Positions 3,369-35,548 are shown, counted from the first letter of the stretch. The stretch: DNA of 40,715 nucleotides from a virus (IMGVR_UViG_2851933302_000004); one strand, 5' to 3'. Notes: generated by a model not told the origin, from the sequence alone. A program made the numbers and translations.

Positions 3369-3395
3369 CCCGCAATATTTTGCGGGCTTTTTTTT
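3369..3395 (+). terminator. Hairpin plus T8 tract overlapping the tailspike stop codon; efficient only in plus orientation
   Basis: CCCGCAA-TATT-TTGCGGG followed by TTTTTTTT. Confidence 0.4.
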
Positions 3396-6300
3396 AACGT
3401 TCTTCCAGAGACTGAACCCGCTCTTTTATCTTATCCATTTCTCTGCGCTGCCATGCTGCCTCGATATAGAATAAGAGATCAGGTCTGACCCCCCATCTAG
3501 ATCCTGCTGGCGTTATTTCAACGCGCTCAATGATGTCTTCTATTACCATCACTGGATTATCATCCTCATCAACAATGATGCTCCCGTCATTATCAGTCAG
3601 CGGCATTTCCCTTTGGCCAGTAATGACGTCATCATATACTGCGGGATAATCGTCATAGCAAAGAAAGGCATAGCGGCATGTTGTGCTTTCTTCTTCCATG
3701 AGTCCGTGAGAAATAAGAACATCACGAAGTTGCTGCGCGATTACACCATGATGTATCCTCGCCCCTTCTTCCCCCTTTATAGCGACAGCGTTCAGCCATT
3801 TATAAGCGATATACCTGACGTCACCCCAGGCATCCAGCAATGCTTCGTCAGGAGAGACCGGCTCTGTCTTTAATGTTCCGTCACTGGTAACCACAGGATT
3901 GGAGCCAAGATAAACTGTCGAGAACCTGTTTCCCGGACCACCAAGAGCATTTACATTATCAAGATAAGGTTTAACATCTCCGTTCTCAAAAAGATGTTCG
4001 AGTGCGTTATATACCGCGCGACGTGGAGTACTGCTTCCGGAACCATGCAACGTTATCATTGCACCATCTGCTGAAGACGTTGTTTCACCGCCGCTAACGA
4101 TTAATCTCTGAGCGGTAACATCATCAGACGGTACTTTCTTCGCAATAATGGCGTAATTACCCTCAAGTTTGACTTCCGCGCGAACTTGTCCTGATGTACC
4201 TGCATGGACAGTCAGTGACTGGACGGCAACATCATCTGTGAAATCAACGGGTACAGGAACCGTCCTCACGCCTGACGTCGACATAAAAGTAGGAAGCGTT
4301 CTGTTAGGAGTGGCTCCGTAGACAAAATCCCTTGAAACAAATTCTTCCTGTTTAATTTTCACCCTGAAACAATACAAATCAGCCGGGTGACCATCGTGAA
4401 CATAAGGATATTTTCTGTTGTTATCCCCTATGCTCCATGGGTTTAGAAAGTCTTCCCCACCGAAAATGTAGTACAGCCAGTTGTCTTTGATACAAACTGA
4501 ACCAACACCAACCGCAGAGTTAACTATTCCGCCCTGATAAATCTGATCAGTAACATTAACCCACTCTACATTATCCAGACTCCACTCATTGACGTTAACT
4601 CTGGTCATAAATGTTCTTGGATAATTTCCTGCATAACGGTTATCAGGTTCTCCTCCTTCCCACTCACCAAATGCGCGCTCACTGCCAAAAATAATCAGCT
4701 CATCGCCAACTTTGGCAAAAGGAAGGTTTGAGTGATGAACATTATTTGGGAAGCGAAGAGAATTCCATGATGTACCTAAATCAGAGCTTCTGTGCAATGA
4801 ACTACCGGGTTGAGTACTTAATGTCCCCCTGGTCGTCAGATACAGAATGCCATCATAATATTTTACACATGGCTCAGATGCATTCGCCTCATATTCTGCA
4901 GGTATGCGTCTGCGAACAAAGCTACCAGGAGAACCGAAAGCATCAGAGAAATAGAGTATCCCAAGCTCGCGTGGACCAATATCACCATTATGGTAGCCAA
5001 CAGCAAAACTGTTATCGCTAATCGTCGCAAAACTGTGAATCTCAGTAACAGGAGTGCTTCCGTCAACAAAAGAAGGAATAGTTCCAAGACTGGTTTTTCT
5101 CCATGGTGACGAGTGAAATGATGTACCAAAACTCCAGTATCTACCCTCGTTATTCTGATCCACATCCTGGGTATTTTGCGTCGTAACTGTAAAAGTATTT
5201 TTATCAATAACAGTAGTCACCGTCATATTCCCGGTAACACCTGTAACACCAGAGTTTGAGAAGTTGACAAAATCACCAGCAAATAATCCGTGATCAGTAA
5301 TGCGAATATAAGCGACTTGCTGATTTGCTGCTTTCGTTATACCACCATAAACGCGAAGGCTGCGACTCATTGGGCGATCCCACAACTCTGCAACCTGCAG
5401 TTTATTTCCGCTCACGGTCCGCGTCTCAATTACAGCAAAAAGGCGATTTCTGACAACCCCCATACTCATGCAGTGATAGTTAACTGTGGGATAGTTTTCA
5501 TGTAAATCTGTAAGCCATTCCGGCGTTGTCCAGGTCTTCCCGTCATCTCCTGAGCGAACCCATGCAACATGGAGGTTATTTACACCATGGCGGTCTCCAG
5601 CCATAAAAGGCGCATAGATGACATTGTCATATACAAACGTTTTATCCTGCGTCCAGGCGTTGTACCACGGTGTATCTGTAATTTTAAATAACTCTCCCTG
5701 GATAAAATCTTCAGAAGCATAAAAAAGAGGCTGGCCCGGTATTCTCTCAAATAAAAAACGAGCATTTTTAAATCGACTGACATCCGGAAGAGTTGATACT
5801 TTAAAAGTAAGCCCTAATCCGTCAATTTTATAACCTGGAGATGAGGCTTCAAGGCACGCGCTTATTGCAGTGGAATCGTCATTTATACCATCACCAACAG
5901 CTCCAAAATCTTTGGGGCTAATAGCATCACGCATTTTATCCTGGAACGTTCGGTACACAGCCCCAGAACCATACTGAATAAACCAACCAAAACCACCAAC
6001 AACCCCGGAGATTGCAGCATCGACATAATTACGCATTGAGCGATTATTTACAGCGTCCTGCTCAAATGATGGATCTGCAAGGTTAGAAATTTTGTTTTGC
6101 TTTGCATCGTAATATTTTGCAAGCAAAGATGGTTTCATCAATGCACGTCTGAACCACCCAAAACATTGCTGGATCAGCATCGTCAGGTAGTCAAAGGCAT
6201 CTTCATGCACTTCGGGGAAAAATTTTCCCTGATTGCGAAGGTCTGTCTCCTGCACTACATCAAGCACACGATCTATCGTAATTCGCCATCCAGTAGCAAG

Positions 6301-6513
6301 CGGAGACGGAAGAACCACAGAACCGCCACTATAAGTGCCCGCCCCAGTTACCGTATAACCGGTATCCAGAACCAATTCTGTTACGTTTCCGTTCAGGTCA
6401 GACACCTGAACAACCAGGTCTGATTTTCTGAAAACTCGAAAAGTATACGGAAACGATGTCGTAACGCCGTTACCGGTGTATTCGTTGTGGTCAACTTCGG
6501 TTGAGACCGTCAT
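3394..6513 (-). CDS. Tailspike with endo-N-acetylneuraminidase (endosialidase, K1 polysialic acid depolymerase) domain and C-terminal intramolecular chaperone (autoproteolytic) domain
   Basis: 1039 aa; central region (ERIPGQPLFYASEDF..ITDTPWYNAW..NYHCMSMGV..SGDDGKTW) closely parallels recalled endosialidase catalytic domains of K1 phages; C-terminal S-D-G-x-L-K segment typical of S74 chaperone domains; distinct N-terminal particle-binding domain. Confidence 0.85.
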   Translation of the reverse strand: MTVSTEVDHNEYTGNGVTTSFPYTFRVFRKSDLVVQVSDLNGNVTELVLDTGYTVTGAGTYSGGSVVLPSPLATGWRITIDRVLDVVQETDLRNQGKFFPEVHEDAFDYLTMLIQQCFGWFRRALMKPSLLAKYYDAKQNKISNLADPSFEQDAVNNRSMRNYVDAAISGVVGGFGWFIQYGSGAVYRTFQDKMRDAISPKDFGAVGDGINDDSTAISACLEASSPGYKIDGLGLTFKVSTLPDVSRFKNARFLFERIPGQPLFYASEDFIQGELFKITDTPWYNAWTQDKTFVYDNVIYAPFMAGDRHGVNNLHVAWVRSGDDGKTWTTPEWLTDLHENYPTVNYHCMSMGVVRNRLFAVIETRTVSGNKLQVAELWDRPMSRSLRVYGGITKAANQQVAYIRITDHGLFAGDFVNFSNSGVTGVTGNMTVTTVIDKNTFTVTTQNTQDVDQNNEGRYWSFGTSFHSSPWRKTSLGTIPSFVDGSTPVTEIHSFATISDNSFAVGYHNGDIGPRELGILYFSDAFGSPGSFVRRRIPAEYEANASEPCVKYYDGILYLTTRGTLSTQPGSSLHRSSDLGTSWNSLRFPNNVHHSNLPFAKVGDELIIFGSERAFGEWEGGEPDNRYAGNYPRTFMTRVNVNEWSLDNVEWVNVTDQIYQGGIVNSAVGVGSVCIKDNWLYYIFGGEDFLNPWSIGDNNRKYPYVHDGHPADLYCFRVKIKQEEFVSRDFVYGATPNRTLPTFMSTSGVRTVPVPVDFTDDVAVQSLTVHAGTSGQVRAEVKLEGNYAIIAKKVPSDDVTAQRLIVSGGETTSSADGAMITLHGSGSSTPRRAVYNALEHLFENGDVKPYLDNVNALGGPGNRFSTVYLGSNPVVTSDGTLKTEPVSPDEALLDAWGDVRYIAYKWLNAVAIKGEEGARIHHGVIAQQLRDVLISHGLMEEESTTCRYAFLCYDDYPAVYDDVITGQREMPLTDNDGSIIVDEDDNPVMVIEDIIERVEITPAGSRWGVRPDLLFYIEAAWQRREMDKIKERVQSLEER

Positions 6514-6617
6514 GTTAAATCTCCAGATAGTCGCAGCACCCGTTGCGCCGCATATCTGGTTATTCTATTACCTGGAAAACCACATATGGATAGAAAGGCT
6601 GTAAATACGAATAGATA

Positions 6618-6632
6618 TTACCTTTCAGGTAA
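6618..6632. promoter_or_regulatory. Operator-like palindrome TTACC-N5-GGTAA (copy 1) in the divergent region between tailspike and the LexA-box gene
   Basis: ATTACCTTTCAGGTAAT perfect inverted repeat; same motif recurs at 11 other positions. Confidence 0.5.
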
Positions 6633-6669
6633 TTTGCAAAACGTGCTGGATAGCAAACAAATTATTTGC

Positions 6670-6689
6670 TACTGTATAAATATACAGTT
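6670..6689 (+). promoter_or_regulatory. LexA (SOS) box 20 bp upstream of a small antirepressor-like gene
   Basis: TACTGTATAAATATACAGTT, CTGT-N8-ACAG with AT-rich spacer, matches about 18 of 20 positions of the E. coli LexA consensus. Confidence 0.7.
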
Positions 6690-6708
6690 ATTGCATGGAG
6701 AAGATAAG

Positions 6709-6966
6709 ATGCAGCAGTATCACTATCCACTGGAAGACGGATTTACCGAAAGGATTCACACGCCGGGAGGCGTCAGGTCACTGGTGGAGGGATCGCACTT
6801 GATGAAATTACTCCGGGATCTCGATAAGGATGGATTTAATGTCGATGGCCCACTTGCCGAACTGACTGCACTGATTAACTACGTCACCAGCTCACAGATG
6901 TCTATGCAGGATCTGCAAACACATCTCGACTATTGTGCCGAACAATTACGAAAACAAACCCGGTAA
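6709..6966 (+). CDS. Small SOS-regulated protein, candidate antirepressor; shares a domain with the C-terminus of the Bro-N protein at 8352..9047
   Basis: ORF 6586..6966 trimmed to ATG 6709 (GGAGAAG RBS); LexA box immediately upstream; about 50 percent identity to the C-terminal 75 aa of the 231-aa Bro-N protein (LMKLLRDLDKDGFNVDGPLAELT vs LMNLLNQLQEDGHDVSGAAAELT). Confidence 0.5.
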   Translation: MQQYHYPLEDGFTERIHTPGGVRSLVEGSHLMKLLRDLDKDGFNVDGPLAELTALINYVTSSQMSMQDLQTHLDYCAEQLRKQTR

Positions 6967-6973
6967 ATTTAAA

Positions 6974-6989
6974 GGCCGCAAGAGCGGCC
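6974..6989. terminator. Hairpin between convergent genes (GGCCGC-AAGA-GCGGCC), likely terminator for the minus-strand two-gene module
   Basis: Perfect 6-bp stem between stop codons at 6966 and 6991; T-rich on minus-strand side. Confidence 0.4.
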
Positions 6990-6990
6990 A

Positions 6991-7497
6991 TTAACAGTCG
7001 TAAAATTCCGGGTCCCACAAACTTGCATCGCGCGGCATGGATTCTAAATTTTTCAGCCGCAAAATTCTGTCACACTCGACAAGAAGTTTTTGTTTTTGTT
7101 CGTCAATTTCTACTTTTTTGTGTGCTGGCTCATCCCAGTAATCCAGAAGAAACGCATGTCGCTCAGACGTTACAAGATAAATCACATACACATCACTGGT
7201 TGGTATTTTTTTATGCTTGTTGGTGGTCTTGTCTTTCTTCCCGGATGCCCAGTTTTTCCAGCATTGTTCCGTACCGCTCTCACCAAACTTGTCAGTATAG
7301 TTTCCGATGTTTACGTGAACGTGGCGTATGTGATATTCCAGCATCTCTTTCGGTGGATCCCGAAACAGAGTGTCCTTTCCGAAATCCTTATGATGACCGT
7401 AGCGCCAGTGATCTATGAACGCGTTTTTGATAGGTATTAGCTCAGGGTCCTTCCCAAAAATTCCAGGGTGAACCAACCCCTGGAATTTATTCAGCAT
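6991..7497 (-). CDS. YafO-like toxin domain protein (candidate type II toxin or abortive-infection effector), AT-rich cargo
   Basis: ORF trimmed to ATG 7497; motifs FGKDTLFRD and HIRHVHVNIGN resemble the YafO family core (recalled); overlaps upstream gene by 11 bp. Confidence 0.4.
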   Translation of the reverse strand: MLNKFQGLVHPGIFGKDPELIPIKNAFIDHWRYGHHKDFGKDTLFRDPPKEMLEYHIRHVHVNIGNYTDKFGESGTEQCWKNWASGKKDKTTNKHKKIPTSDVYVIYLVTSERHAFLLDYWDEPAHKKVEIDEQKQKLLVECDRILRLKNLESMPRDASLWDPEFYDC

Positions 7498-7906
7498 CGT
7501 CGTAGAGCTCCTGAGCCATATCTTCGGCAGTGCGTGCAAACATCCTGCGCGAGATTGCATGAGATTTCTCGACGGACATCTTTGGGACCTCATGCATAAC
7601 ATTTTTGGGAGTTGTGTAATAGCCTATTACAATTTTCACACCTGACTTATGATTAATATCAGCATAATATACTTCTTGTTCAGACGTTTCACGACGAACA
7701 TAATCTGCCAGTTTTCCACATTTAAATTCCCCTCCCTGATGTTTTAAAATCTCCTCAACTGCACTATTTTCAGTGAAATACCGAATAAGAAATTTCTGTC
7801 CAGACTCTTCAGCATGAGGTATAACAGTATTATTGGAAGCCCGAACAATGGCCTTACTCAATATTTCATGGTCTTTATTTTTTTCTGATTTCCTCAAATG
7901 CTGCAT
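7487..7906 (-). CDS. Hypothetical protein with acidic C-terminal tail, upstream partner of the YafO-like gene (candidate antitoxin)
   Basis: ORF trimmed to ATG 7906; AT-rich; stop overlaps start of downstream gene. Confidence 0.4.
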   Translation of the reverse strand: MQHLRKSEKNKDHEILSKAIVRASNNTVIPHAEESGQKFLIRYFTENSAVEEILKHQGGEFKCGKLADYVRRETSEQEVYYADINHKSGVKIVIGYYTTPKNVMHEVPKMSVEKSHAISRRMFARTAEDMAQELYDDAE

Positions 7907-8067
7907 TACTGTAGCTCTCTTCGTGTTCACGGGCACCCCCAACTACCTCTAGGGTAAACATTCTATCGAAAGTATACGCATACTGGCAAAAAAATAGGCA
8001 GGTATTTTCTGAAATGGGATCAATCAAACCACATAGGGTTGAAATAACGTGAGTTATGCATTTATTA

Positions 8068-8082
8068 TTACCTTTGCGGTAA
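8068..8082. promoter_or_regulatory. Operator-like palindrome TTACC-N5-GGTAA (copy 2) about 270 bp upstream of the Bro-N gene
   Basis: TTACCTTTGCGGTAA; preceded by AACCACATAGG motif at 8027..8037. Confidence 0.45.
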
Positions 8083-8174
8083 ATTTACATCGCACTCCTC
8101 TTGTGCCATAGTAATCGGGCACTGGAAAAATCCAGTGCCGGGATTGGCGTCCCGGATTACTAAAAGGCGCATTC

Positions 8175-8196
8175 ACCGCGCAAGCGGTTTTTTTAT
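8175..8196 (+). terminator. Intrinsic terminator inside the 5-prime leader of the Bro-N gene (attenuator or end of a small RNA)
   Basis: ACCGC-GCAA-GCGGT hairpin followed by TTTTTTT. Confidence 0.5.
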
Positions 8197-8351
8197 GCGT
8201 ATAGCACGGCCACATTCGTATTATGGTGGGCTGTGTGGGGGCACCGAAAGGTGCGCCGGGTCCTTTTAGCCGGTTACGCCAACCCTGCACAGTTCACCAC
8301 CAACCGATTGGCGTCGGTAGTGGTGATTAACCAGACTAAAAGGTAACCACT

Positions 8352-9047
8352 ATGACAGCTACAAAAAGCACGTCCATTTTTTCTTTCGAATCCCAAGCCG
8401 ATATACGGGTAATCGTCATTAATGGTGAGCCATGGTTTATCGCTTCAGATGTTTGTCGGGCTATAGGCATAGCAAATCATCGAGATGCTGTTCGAAAACT
8501 TGATGATGATGAGAAGGGCGTCGCTTCAACCGACACCCCTGGCGGTGAGCAAGAATCGATCATCATCTCCGAGTCAGGCCTCTACACACTGATCCTCCGC
8601 TGCCGCGACGCAGTGACACCAGGCACTATCCCCTACCGCTTTCGTAAATGGGTTACAGGTGAGGTTCTTCCTCAGATCCGCCGCACCGGAAGTTACATTA
8701 AAAACTCGCTCCCGCAGGAAGAACGCATAAAGATGGTTGCCGACCAGGTAGCCAACGCCACAGCATCAGCAGTGATGCAGGCAATGAAGATAGAGAACAA
8801 AACCTACAGTGCCCCACTGAAGCCCGGCTACCGCAGCCTGATTCATTCGCCGTCTGGTGTTCTCGGCCTGACGGAGAACTCACTGCTGATGAATCTGCTG
8901 AACCAGTTACAGGAAGACGGGCACGACGTATCGGGCGCGGCGGCGGAGCTGACCACCATGTTCTGCTACATCGTCGGTGTGAGCAAGTGCCTGCGTGATA
9001 TCCAGACGCACGCGGAGTACATCAACGACAAGGCTGGGTTCTTCTGA
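8352..9047 (+). CDS. Bro-N domain protein with C-terminal antirepressor-like domain
   Basis: N-terminus FSFESQADIRVIVINGEPWFIASDVCRAIG is a classic Bro-N signature; C-terminus paralogous to the 85-aa SOS-regulated protein. Confidence 0.7.
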   Translation: MTATKSTSIFSFESQADIRVIVINGEPWFIASDVCRAIGIANHRDAVRKLDDDEKGVASTDTPGGEQESIIISESGLYTLILRCRDAVTPGTIPYRFRKWVTGEVLPQIRRTGSYIKNSLPQEERIKMVADQVANATASAVMQAMKIENKTYSAPLKPGYRSLIHSPSGVLGLTENSLLMNLLNQLQEDGHDVSGAAAELTTMFCYIVGVSKCLRDIQTHAEYINDKAGFF

Positions 9048-9113: not shown

Positions 9114-9128
9114 TTACCTTACGGGTAA
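9114..9128. promoter_or_regulatory. Operator-like palindrome TTACC-N5-GGTAA (copy 3) 60 bp upstream of the 210-aa gene
   Basis: TTACCTTACGGGTAA. Confidence 0.45.
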
Positions 9129-9187
9129 GAAAGCGTTTTTAATCTTCCCTTCAAAACGCGTCCTGTAGCCAAACATGGGAGGACGAA

Positions 9188-9820
9188 ATGAAAACAAATA
9201 CAACAAGAAAAGCGATGCCATACATTATCCCAGAAGCAGATTTCGACAGAAAACTGAACATGTCTGAGAAGAACACTAGTCACACCGAAAGCTACTTAGC
9301 GAAAGGTGTGGTTGATTTCGTTCTTCCGGGATTCACAACACCTTATGGTTATCGCCTTGTAAAATCTTGTAATGGCGATCATTACAGAATGATTACTACC
9401 AGCGATACTCCAGAAACGGTGTATGCGGTTAAGTTAATCTTTCGGGAAGATATCGTCGAAGCTAAAAGAACATGTACGCAGATCATGGTATGGCGTACGC
9501 CTAATGTTATTCATGACCGTGCTGTTCATGGTTTGCCTCAGATTTTTTTTCAGTTCTTCCTAGAGCAATATGCGATCGTTGTATCTGATGAGCAACAAAC
9601 AATCGATGGGAGAAGATTCTGGGAAAGAATGATTTCTTGGGCTATAAACACCCCGGGATATAATGTATACGTTTCAGATGGCTCTGAAGAAGATAGACCT
9701 CTTAGCTTCATGACATCATGGGATGATTTCTATAGCCAGTGGGCTGATTTCTGTTGGGGCAGTGATAAAGATGTGCATACCCACAGACTACTGGTTATAA
9801 GCAAAGATAAACTGCATTAA
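9188..9820 (+). CDS. Hypothetical cargo protein, 210 aa, function unknown
   Basis: ORF with GGGAGG RBS; operator copy upstream and strong terminator downstream; no recognisable family. Confidence 0.5.
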   Translation: MKTNTTRKAMPYIIPEADFDRKLNMSEKNTSHTESYLAKGVVDFVLPGFTTPYGYRLVKSCNGDHYRMITTSDTPETVYAVKLIFREDIVEAKRTCTQIMVWRTPNVIHDRAVHGLPQIFFQFFLEQYAIVVSDEQQTIDGRRFWERMISWAINTPGYNVYVSDGSEEDRPLSFMTSWDDFYSQWADFCWGSDKDVHTHRLLVISKDKLH

Positions 9821-26408: not shown

Positions 26409-26423
26409 TTACCTTTCAGGTAA
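26409..26423. promoter_or_regulatory. Operator-like palindrome TTACC-N5-GGTAA (copy 4) upstream of portal, with TTGACA 16 bp away
   Basis: TTACCTTTCAGGTAA identical to copy 1; AACCACATATG at 26358..26368 also shared with copy 1 region. Confidence 0.45.
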
Positions 26424-26745: not shown

Positions 26746-26822
26746 GTGGCATTAGCTCAGTTGGACAGAGCAACCGCCTTCTAAGCGGTTGGTCGCAGGT
26801 TCGAATCCTGCATGCCACGCCA
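26746..26822 (+). tRNA. tRNA-Arg (anticodon UCU), phage-encoded
   Basis: Cloverleaf folded by hand: 7-bp acceptor stem GTGGCAT/ATGCCAC, D-arm GCTC/GAGC, anticodon stem ACCGC/GCGGT with loop CTTCTAA, T-arm GCAGG-TTCGAAT-CCTGC, encoded CCA; resembles host argU with compensatory stem changes. Confidence 0.9.
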
Positions 26823-34711: not shown

Positions 34712-34774
34712 TCACCCATAAGGTAACAAAAATCAAGGATAGTTACCTGTGGGGTGCATTTACCTGTTGGGTAA
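34712..34774. promoter_or_regulatory. Immunity-region operator cluster: three TTACC-N5-GGTAA-type sites in the repressor/cro divergent region
   Basis: TCACCCATAAGGTAA (34712..34726), TTACCTGTGGGGTGC (34743..34757, weak), TTACCTGTTGGGTAA (34760..34774). Confidence 0.55.
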
Positions 34775-34829
34775 TATTGCTTTAAATTGAATCATCTACT
34801 GATTCATATACGAGGCGATTTTCCAGAAA

Positions 34830-35414
34830 ATGAAAAGTATCCAGGACGTCCGCAGGCAAAATCTCAACGACTTGATCGACCGTGAATTCAATGGTGTTCA
34901 GACGCGGATGGCAGAAAAACTTGGAACTCAGGCAAATCTGGTAAACCGCTGGGCTCTTGGCAAGAAGGTTATCGGCGACCAGGTTGCGCGAAAAATTGAA
35001 GCTGCCGCCAATAAACCCCGTAACTGGCTTGATATCGATCGCTCGCTTTCTCAGGAAGGTTTTCAGCCTGTCGGCCCAAGCGACATTGGCCAGCTGGCGG
35101 CTCACAACCTGGAACGCTGGATGAGCGAAAGCCGCGACCTTTCAACACAGGGAAAACTTCACCGCGCATCCGGCGTCGCCCAGGTGACAATCAGCCGCCT
35201 GTTAAACAATGAGGTCAGCGTTTCCATTTCCACCCTGGAGAATGTTGCATCCGCATTCGGGCGTCACGGCTATGAATTACTGATTCACCCGCACGACCCT
35301 GCGACCATCAACTATGACCGCTCGCGCTACGCATTGTTACCCGAAACCGAGAAAGCAAAGATCGAAAGTTACATTGAATTTGTCATCAACCAGAACGAAA
35401 AAAACAAACAATAA
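34830..35414 (+). CDS. Prophage repressor with two HTH-like segments and no recognisable LexA-type autocleavage domain
   Basis: 194 aa; divergent from cro-like gene across operator cluster; no Ala-Gly or Ser-Lys peptidase segment seen. Confidence 0.6.
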   Translation: MKSIQDVRRQNLNDLIDREFNGVQTRMAEKLGTQANLVNRWALGKKVIGDQVARKIEAAANKPRNWLDIDRSLSQEGFQPVGPSDIGQLAAHNLERWMSESRDLSTQGKLHRASGVAQVTISRLLNNEVSVSISTLENVASAFGRHGYELLIHPHDPATINYDRSRYALLPETEKAKIESYIEFVINQNEKNKQ

Positions 35415-35471: not shown

Positions 35472-35548
35472 TTACCTAATGGGTAATTTTTTTAACTCAT
35501 ATCTATTGACATCAAACCAAATACGCATAATTATTACCTCAACGGTAA
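35472..35548 (+). promoter_or_regulatory. Rightward early promoter region: TTGACA -35 box flanked by two operator palindromes
   Basis: TTACCTAATGGGTAA (35472..35486), TTGACA (35506..35511), AT-rich -10 candidates, TTACCTCAACGGTAA (35534..35548). Confidence 0.5.

Follow-up and report, generated by a model that had tools for sequence, protein, structure and literature searches.

How does a prophage leave lysogeny when its repressor carries no visible domain for self-cleavage? The question is raised by a stretch of viral DNA of 40,715 nucleotides (nt; IMGVR_UViG_2851933302_000004, the whole of which we call the window), and in particular by positions 6618 to 9047, where a gene for an 85-amino-acid (aa) protein, here named ant, lies behind a LexA box and is followed on the same strand by a gene for a Bro-N protein (Table 1). 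An earlier sequence-only reading had proposed that this prophage is induced through a LexA-controlled antirepressor rather than through self-cleavage of its repressor, Rep. This proposal is supported by the orthology of both proteins to Ant and Rep of the Salmonella phage SPC32H, by the conservation of the box, and by a nucleotide change in phage SPC32N. We read 6618 to 9047 as an antirepression region composed of two cassettes that would encode the same Rep-binding domain, and we consider a two-cassette mechanism, in which an SOS trigger is combined with a conditional second antirepressor, to be the best explanation of the locus, with a probability of roughly 0.8.

By sequence comparison, the window is a phiV10/epsilon15-like prophage (genus Uetakevirus) of Escherichia coli IHE3034/APEC O18. 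The chromosomes of these two strains (both O18:K1, of the sequence type 95 [ST95] kind) match a 2.7-kb segment at 100% identity, and a prophage of about 40 kb sits between yfgI and guaA in both. The nearest phages are phiV10, ZX5, EC.W1-9, and TL-2011b, which are epsilon15-like podoviruses, and the gene layout agrees with this assignment.

The small protein was recovered by tblastn from 35 records of a phage collection, including SPC32H and SPC32N. Its SPC32H counterpart (SPC32H_020), which is 88% identical, is annotated in GenBank as "ant: anti-repressor protein". Additionally, the window protein aligns over its full length with chain E ("Anti-repressor protein"; E 4e-47) of PDB entry 5D50, which is titled [quoted passage not shown]. 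No family model for Ant was found in Pfam or NCBIfam, and PHROGs lists the domain (phrog_450) as being of unknown function. The sole Pfam line, DUF724, was below threshold and was dismissed. A longer reading of ant with 126 aa (6586 to 6966), which many gene callers pick, was also rejected on account of the position of the Shine-Dalgarno sequence, the LexA box that it would contain, and the length of the crystallised SPC32H Ant (86 aa). Many database entries give ant as an open reading frame (ORF) of 126 or 127 aa starting upstream of the LexA box, one cluster of these having 833 member sequences, and such calls are probably a systematic miscall of the start site.

Rep, the predicted target of Ant, matches the phiV10 and ZX5 repressors at 100% identity; with SPC32H Rep it shares 42% identity across 98% of its length. 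Its alignment with chain A of 5D50 (E 4e-42) runs from end to end, and 5D4Z is matched by the C-terminal half. Pfam returned only helix-turn-helix (HTH) families and no Peptidase_S24 for the window Rep, and the protein contains neither an Ala-Gly nor a Cys-Gly dipeptide as a cleavage site. Both features of lambda/P22-type RecA-cleavable repressors, the Ser/Lys dyad of S24 and the AG/CG site, are thus missing from Rep. The earlier description of a repressor without a visible autocleavage domain therefore held, and what was found instead is a full-length homolog of SPC32H Rep. The helix segment NLVNRW is common to the two repressors, whose N-terminal domains are about 53% identical (counted on the alignment), and this likeness fits a shared operator half-site, TTACC.

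With up to one mismatch allowed, the window contains 14 copies of the palindrome TTACC-N5-GGTAA, where 0.58 would be expected. We read this motif as the Rep operator because in SPC32H it likewise flanks rep and precedes ant, and because the same site ahead of the epsilon15 ant ortholog carries the label "repressor, lysogeny" in GenBank. Copies flank rep at a P_L-like and a P_R-like promoter. One of the putative operators of the divergent rep/cro-like promoter region, that at 34712, falls inside the spacer of a minus-strand promoter (TTGTTA-17-TATTAT). Further copies, at 26409, 29555/29573, 32367/32429, and 34375, stand between the late/structural and the early gene blocks, and a similar scatter is seen in SPC32H.

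The near-consensus LexA box that had been noticed just upstream of the 85-aa gene proved to be the sole site in the 40.7-kb window with three or fewer mismatches to the consensus (it has two), and none of 100 shuffles gave such a site. It ends 19 nt before the ATG of ant (6709), which is preceded by a GGAG motif 8 nt upstream. The stretch between the tailspike gene and ant was aligned for eight phages (the window, phiV10, SPC32H, epsilon15, Tyrion, BUCT554, and two Klebsiella phages). It holds a pair of conserved islands, namely, the LexA box and, some 38 nt farther upstream, a palindrome of the form ATTACC-N5-GGTAA, and the box kept the same position in all eight Uetakeviruses while the flanking sequence diverged. 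Direct comparison of the SPC32H and SPC32N genomes gave two differing positions in 1049 bp around ant, one of them a C-to-A change in a half-site of the box (ACAG to AAAG); the half-site of the window is intact. SPC32N was reportedly found by Kim and Ryu in 2013 to be two nucleotides away from SPC32H, one of which falls in the LexA site over the ant promoter and renders Ant expression constitutive.

Two candidate promoters could serve ant. The first, TTGCAA (6635 to 6640)-17-ACAAAT, has its -35 element directly after the operator at 6618 to 6632, with the box then falling near +1; the second, TGGATA (6646)-17-TACTGT, has its -10 element inside the box. Judging from the arrangement of these sites, ant probably has two inputs, LexA and Rep.

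Downstream, the 231-aa Bro-N protein carries a related domain at its C terminus. BLASTP aligned residues 2 to 75 of Ant with residues 150 to 223 of this protein without gaps (31/74 identical, or 42%; positives, 58%; E 8e-16). The sequence-only reading had stated that Ant shares about half of its residues with the Bro-N C terminus; the shared domain stands, but "half" was slightly generous. Pfam places Bro-N at residues 17 to 107 (E 2e-21), and the protein matches the PHROGs families phrog_130, phrog_450 (E 4e-36), and phrog_1760. Its C-terminal part matches chain E of 5D50 (E 1e-13), and 21 positions are invariant across nine aligned Ant orthologs and the Bro-N copy. An AlphaFold2 (AF2) model of residues 142 to 231, with a predicted local distance difference test (pLDDT) score of 76, matched only chains G and H of 5D50 in the PDB (template modeling [TM] score, 0.69 to 0.82; root mean square deviation, 1.4 to 2.2 Å), no other PDB fold match to this model falling below E = 5. 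These comparisons agree with the view that a second, paralogous copy sits on a Bro-N scaffold. The protein is also 100% identical to ORF4 of phage ZX5, overexpression of which brought the prophage titre down from 1e9 to 1e6 and cut repressor transcription by 75%, and overexpression of the ZX5 repressor abolished free phage (PMC9782041). By analogy with ZX5, it is supported that the Bro-N::Ant protein would also work against lysogeny.

A profile of Ant and the Bro-N C-terminal domain was then searched against 1.84 billion representative proteins. It retrieved 63 clusters, most of which are free-standing proteins of about 85 to 95 aa, and in the longer cluster proteins the domain lies C-terminal to Bro-N, AntA, Phage_pRha, or ORF6N. 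These fusions surfaced only in the representative profile search, a word-indexed protein search having given almost only free-standing orthologs of 85 to 86 aa. Because the same domain is found C-terminally on several N-terminal scaffolds, it is, on sequence grounds, a small module that moves between proteins of a known family, the phage "antirepressor-like" proteins, in which domains are shuffled. With an N-terminal Bro-N domain and a variable C-terminal module, the Bro-N protein has the build of the BRO/KilA-N-type modular phage antirepressors. Identities were 61 to 88% among Ant proteins, 54 to 77% among Bro-N C-terminal domains, and 36 to 44% between the two types, which are, as judged from such alignments, two old lineages. 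Co-evolution of the Bro-N copy with the Ant of the same genome was considered and rejected: paralogs cluster by type instead, a pattern that argues neither for nor against a shared target.

The paralogy of the second copy had thus been recognized, but its regulation had been missed. No second LexA box lies ahead of the Bro-N cassette, the next-best 20-mer in the window having seven mismatches, and a Rep-type operator and an IsrK/C4 RNA leader are present instead. A palindrome of this type abutting the -35 element is found 48 to 51 nt upstream of isrK in five of the five phages compared, and the transcription start predicted from TTTACA-17-CATAGT is the first base of IsrK. IsrK, which is overlapped by a hit to the c4-a1b1 model RF03163 (41.7 bits), has an intrinsic terminator consisting of a stem (8175 to 8188) and a T run. 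The b' loop of C4 is the exact complement of the 8-mer CTAAAAGG, of which one copy lies in IsrK and the other, at b2, takes in the Shine-Dalgarno sequence of the Bro-N gene, whose ATG is at 8352. Similarly, the a' loop complements TTGGCGT at 8144 and at 8308. No icd gene was found between c4 and the antirepressor gene; an ORF of 35 to 37 aa without a Pfam match overlaps C4 instead, and in ZX5 this leader ORF is annotated as "ash family protein".

In the window and five related phages, hits to the isrK and C4 models of Rfam exceed the respective gathering scores, and the IsrK/C4/Bro-N cassette, with the operator at the same place, is found in phiV10, ZX5, EC.W1-9, Tyrion, and a Klebsiella prophage. 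Across the six phages the C4 loops covary three ways with both target pairs. The a' loop reads ACGCCAA together with TTGGCGT in one group and AGACCAA together with TTGGTCT in another; an extra base in b' (CCTTTGTAG) is matched by its complement in b1 and b2; and in the Klebsiella phage CCGTTTAG is paired with CTAAACGG and CTAAGCGG. Such three-way compensatory change is strong comparative evidence that the predicted RNA pairings are in use. There are at least three co-varying C4 specificity types among the Uetakeviruses, which recalls the heteroimmunity types of P1/P7 immI.

The Bro-N antirepressor is intact in the window, ZX5, EC.W1-9, Tyrion, and the Klebsiella prophage. In phiV10 the gene (3780 to 4459) is frameshifted inside the Ant-like domain, giving p23 (194 aa) and p22 (30 aa), and SPC32H, epsilon15, BUCT554, and BUCT711 lack the cassette altogether. 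Because of this frameshift and these absences, we regard the cassette as accessory.

How might the two cassettes operate? PMC9638917 describes SPC32H Rep as binding DNA as a tetramer and the tetrameric Ant as binding two Rep dimers and breaking the Rep tetramer, and the review PMC7380047 describes antirepressors that, once freed by LexA cleavage, inactivate the repressor through binding, citing Kim & Ryu 2013 beside Tum and the Gifsy antirepressors. The SPC32H structure and biochemistry were thus established by others, and the present analysis shows the homologies, the motifs with their conservation, and the RNA covariation. By analogy, we infer that in this phage Ant would bind Rep and release it from operator DNA, that LexA and Rep would occupy the sites described above, and that events would follow the order given here. 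In the lysogen, host LexA would sit on the SOS box over the promoter/start region of ant, and Rep may add repression from the upstream operator. DNA damage would lead to RecA-stimulated self-cleavage of LexA and thereby to transcription of ant. Ant, a tetramer in SPC32H, would bind Rep, break the DNA-bound Rep tetramer, and free the TTACC-N5-GGTAA operators at the early promoters, and lytic growth would follow, Rep itself staying uncleaved. Rep may act at many promoters across the prophage, beyond the immunity region.

Loss of Rep would open the isrK promoter along with the early promoters, and read-through of the IsrK terminator would carry transcription through C4 and the Bro-N gene. The C4 loops a' and b' would block Bro-N translation by pairing with a2 and b2, and a1 and b1 of IsrK would act as decoys; translation would then depend on how far C4 pairs at the Shine-Dalgarno sequence and how far it is drawn to the decoys. 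With a putatively repressor-operated promoter and a C4 gate, the Bro-N gene should be silent in a stable lysogen, and it would be turned on only once Rep is removed (lock-in) or from an infecting genome (anti-immunity). The Ant proteins of P1 and P22 have an anti-immunity role from the infecting genome. The natural role of Bro-N::Ant could be the lock-in of induction, the defeat of the immunity of a resident relative, or both.

Several points weigh against the two-cassette mechanism. Rep is just 42% identical to SPC32H Rep, so that Ant-Rep binding would be extrapolated from that phage. A consensus promoter scan passed neither of the ant promoter candidates, and the placement of this promoter is uncertain. 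Moreover, a model in which ant is purely a trigger sits uneasily with a Rep operator ahead of the gene, since complete repression of ant by Rep would leave the prophage uninducible through cleavage of LexA alone. This operator may serve to limit leakage from ant, or it may let Ant synthesis reinforce itself after onset, and it must not shut off the SOS trigger completely. For the second cassette, the alignment behind the AF2 model is dominated by Ant orthologs, and the model, at pLDDT 76, is of moderate confidence. Finally, the ZX5 ORF4 result was an effect of overexpressing a glutathione S-transferase (GST) fusion and not direct Rep binding (PMC9782041).

As to how the second cassette is used, we tentatively propose, at somewhat less than even odds, a two-stage relay built from one portable Rep-binding domain. 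SOS-gated Ant would act first, and Rep-operated, C4/IsrK-gated Bro-N::Ant would follow, making induction irreversible and conferring anti-immunity on infection. If this is true, the variable C-terminal modules of antirepressor-like proteins would set which repressor is targeted, and the N-terminal domain would be dispensable for antirepression.

The main rival reading, less likely than not, is that Bro-N::Ant has no part in the induction of its own prophage and is an anti-immunity weapon, directed from an infecting genome against resident Rep or serving cross-induction, with the resident C4 providing secondary immunity as in P1/P22 immI. Anatomically, the cassette resembles P1 immI in its C4 RNA, in its a1/b1 and a2/b2 targets, and in a promoter putatively under repressor control, and its C4 specificity types co-vary between phages as P1 and P7 differ. 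The Salmonella Uetakeviruses, including SPC32H, are inducible without the cassette, which would thus be dispensable for induction, and the frameshifted cassette of phiV10 points in the same direction. Additionally, the effect of overexpression in ZX5 was that fewer lysogens formed during infection (PMC9782041). Antirepressors can act in trans, and the antirepressor of Fels-1, which is controlled by the repressor and not by LexA, has no role in Fels-1 induction (Lemire et al., PMC3121763). Such a use is nevertheless compatible with a lock-in role, both following from the same wiring.

We consider it unlikely that the Ant-like domain of the Bro-N protein, at 42% identity, has diverged to another partner, whether the repressor of another prophage or a host protein, and that the DNA-binding-like Bro-N domain has the main function. 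Clustering of the paralogs by type, which indicates an old duplication followed by independent evolution, would fit this, as would the presence of the same domain on four N-terminal scaffolds. However, the 21 invariant positions shared with the Ant orthologs and a predicted fold that matches only the Ant of 5D50 argue for a retained partner, the identical protein pushed ZX5, which has an identical Rep, toward lysis (PMC9782041), and the cassette always adjoins ant in phages with this Rep family. That the SOS box is incidental or decayed, induction proceeding by cryptic cleavage of Rep or by the Bro-N antirepressor alone, is highly improbable, for although ZX5 lysogens spontaneously release 1e7 plaque-forming units (PFU)/mL (PMC9782041), the box is near consensus, unique in the window, and kept in eight phages amid diverging flanks, SPC32H and SPC32N differ within it by one base, and Rep, without S24 and without AG/CG, aligns from end to end with a solved fold that is not that of a protease.

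Within the two-cassette mechanism, the LexA/Ant/Rep part is, by sequence, the ortholog of a published and structurally solved system and is not new; the novelty implied by the sequence-only reading was overrated. That system was reportedly described by Kim and Ryu in 2013 (J Virol 87:11775) and by Kim et al. in 2016 (PNAS 113:E2480), with the structures 5D50 and 5D4Z. SPC32H and the window have in common the genus, an ant gene divergent from the tailspike gene, an Ant at 88% identity, the position of the LexA box, the upstream palindrome, and a full-length Rep homolog without a cleavage domain. They differ in host (Salmonella versus, here, E. coli K1 [ST95]) and in Rep (42% identical), and SPC32H carries neither the IsrK/C4/Bro-N cassette nor the two-gene insert beside ant, both of which are present in the window.

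The second cassette is similar to the immI of P1 and P7, which reportedly, in the accounts of Citron and Schuster from 1990 and of Heinrich et al. from 1995, comprises C1-controlled Op51, the C4 antisense RNA, icd, and ant, with a scheme of a'/b', a1/b1, and a2/b2 sites on which the Rfam families RF01695 and RF03163 are built. Shared with P1 immI are a C4 RNA in the leader, two loops facing a1/b1 and an a2/b2 pair that covers the ribosome-binding site ahead of the antirepressor gene, and covariation; the promoter, with a Rep-type palindrome at its -35 element, may likewise be under repressor control. Unlike in P1, a 37-aa leader ORF overlapping C4 is found in place of icd, b2 covers the antirepressor gene's own Shine-Dalgarno sequence, the effector is Bro-N plus an SPC32H-Ant domain and not P1 Ant1/2, and the repressor is unrelated to C1.

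In Gifsy-1, transcription past the IsrK terminator gives an mRNA that encodes an antirepressor-like protein but is silent in translation, and alternative pairings activate this mRNA (Hershko-Shalev et al. 2016, PMC4825925). The isrK-orf45-anrP locus thus resembles the leader described here in its IsrK with a terminator, its short leader ORF, its antirepressor-like gene, and its RNA pairings that gate translation; the orf45 stop overlaps the anrP start (AUGA), whereas a 5-nt gap is found here, and the output measured in Gifsy-1 was AntQ expression (PMC4825925). By analogy, the RNA-gated Bro-N cassette would belong functionally with P1 immI and Gifsy-1 isrK-anrP, without icd and with another effector domain.

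The same logic as in the first cassette, namely, a non-cleavable repressor inactivated through binding by a small antirepressor behind a LexA box, is known for Tum (186), GfoA/GfhA/GftA (Gifsy), and AntC (N15) (Lemire et al. 2011, PMC3121763). However, no sequence relationship to these was detected, and the Ant-domain profile retrieves only its own family of 63 clusters. ZX5, whose Bro-N protein and Rep are 100% identical to those of the window, is integrated at guaA as well, and the ZX5 paper makes no mention of LexA, SPC32H, or an RNA leader and annotates the small Ant as hypothetical (PMC9782041). In the papers and records consulted, we found no description of the SPC32H Ant fold shared by both adjacent antirepressors or of the two-input wiring, which are modest additions.

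Around the antirepression region, very large internal virion proteins are encoded on the side opposite to the tailspike gene. An endosialidase tailspike on an epsilon15-like chassis matches the K1 hosts IHE3034 and APEC O18. The two-gene insert between the cassettes was found only in EC.W1-9 among the compared phages and is present too in ST95-type E. coli genomes; the RefSeq label "type II toxin-antitoxin system YafO family toxin" for the distal gene, 6991 to 7497 (minus strand), was not reproduced by Pfam, NCBIfam, and PADLOC scans. The hairpin separating this insert from ant probably acts in both directions. Beyond the Bro-N gene, the region from 9114 to 9820 looks like a variable cargo slot because ZX5 and EC.W1-9 carry other genes at the position of the 210-aa gene, and it may be controlled by Rep. 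Elsewhere in the prophage, a tRNA-Arg (anticodon tct) lies at 26746 to 26822 (plus strand), and a tRNA-Arg of SPC32H is annotated beside the terminase/portal genes. The rep gene is located at 34805 to 35389 in IHE3034-derived coordinates and 34830 to 35414 in the window, which implies a 25-bp indel between the two somewhere from about 9.2 kb to 34.8 kb. The MT-A70 methyltransferase of the prophage is annotated as frameshifted in IHE3034.

Table 1. Features of the antirepression region and of related loci, in window coordinates
Feature	Position	Strand	Remarks
Tailspike, 1039-aa endosialidase, K1 capsule depolymerase type	3394..6513	-	Divergent from ant
Rep-type operator palindrome TTACCTTTCAGGTAA	6618..6632		Upstream of ant in 8 phages
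LexA (SOS) box TACTGTATAAATATACAGTT	6670..6689		2 mismatches to 20-mer consensus; over likely -10/+1 of ant promoter
ant, 85-aa antirepressor, ortholog of SPC32H Ant	6709..6966	+	88% identity; 5D50_E; phrog_450
GC-rich hairpin between ant and convergent minus-strand insert	6974..6989		Terminator-like on minus strand
Two-gene insert between ant and IsrK/C4/Bro-N cassette	6991..7942	-	phrog_1651, phrog_9503; function unknown
Rep-like palindrome, 1 mismatch	7943..7957		Just downstream of candidate promoter of insert
Candidate promoter of insert, TTGCCA-18-TAGAAT	7989..7960	-	
Rep-type operator TTACCTTTGCGGTAA	8068..8082		Abuts -35 of isrK promoter
isrK promoter, TTTACA and CATAGT	8084..8089 and 8107..8112		17-nt spacer; TG before -10 element
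IsrK-type small RNA/a1-b1 decoy	8119..8194	+	Rfam RF01394, 76.7 bits (gathering score 50)
IsrK elements a1 TTGGCGT and b1 CTAAAAGG	8144 and 8160	+	
C4-type antisense RNA	8219..8304	+	Rfam RF01695, 77.7 bits (gathering score 45)
37-aa leader ORF, putative coding	8233..8346	+	Overlaps C4; ends 5 nt before Bro-N start; Gifsy-1 orf45 position
C4 loops b' CCTTTTAG and a' ACGCCAA	8262 and 8276	+	
C4 target sites a2 TTGGCGT and b2 CTAAAAGG	8308..8314 and 8336..8343	+	Complementarity
Bro-N::Ant-domain antirepressor, 231 aa	8352..9047	+	Bro-N 17-107; Ant-like domain ~148-231
Rep-type palindrome	9114..9128		Overlaps weak TTGGCG-18-TAATAT promoter
210-aa gene, function unknown	9188..9820		phrog_1349; behind weak promoter TTGGCG-18-TAATAT
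Putative operators, rep/cro-like divergent promoter region	34712..34726, 34760..34774		Motif
rep, non-cleavable two-HTH repressor, predicted Ant target	34830..35414	+	HTH domains only; 5D50_A
Putative operators flanking P_L-like promoter TTGACA-17-AATTAT	35472..35486, 35534..35548		Downstream of rep; motif

The LexA-box/ant module is carried by 529 of 5426 complete E. coli genomes (about one in ten), including ST95 K1 meningitis and avian-pathogenic strains. If the SPC32H mechanism can be transferred to them, their prophages would have an explicit, testable induction switch, and a LexA/Ant switch would explain a repressor without a cleavage domain. Ant is 86 to 88% identical across phages of E. 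coli, Salmonella, and Enterobacter, the corresponding Reps being only 42 to 78% identical, yet the operator half-site TTACC and the Rep helix segment NLVNRW are common to them, so that cross-induction or cross-immunity among these phages is a possibility. Of practical value is the annotation of ant, which is a "hypothetical protein" in every RefSeq record among those listed. The RNA-gated Bro-N paralog, for its part, offers a compact system in which to ask what a Bro-N scaffold adds to a self-sufficient antirepressor domain, and the same locus may show how one phage joins SOS triggering to a secondary immunity circuit of the P1 type.

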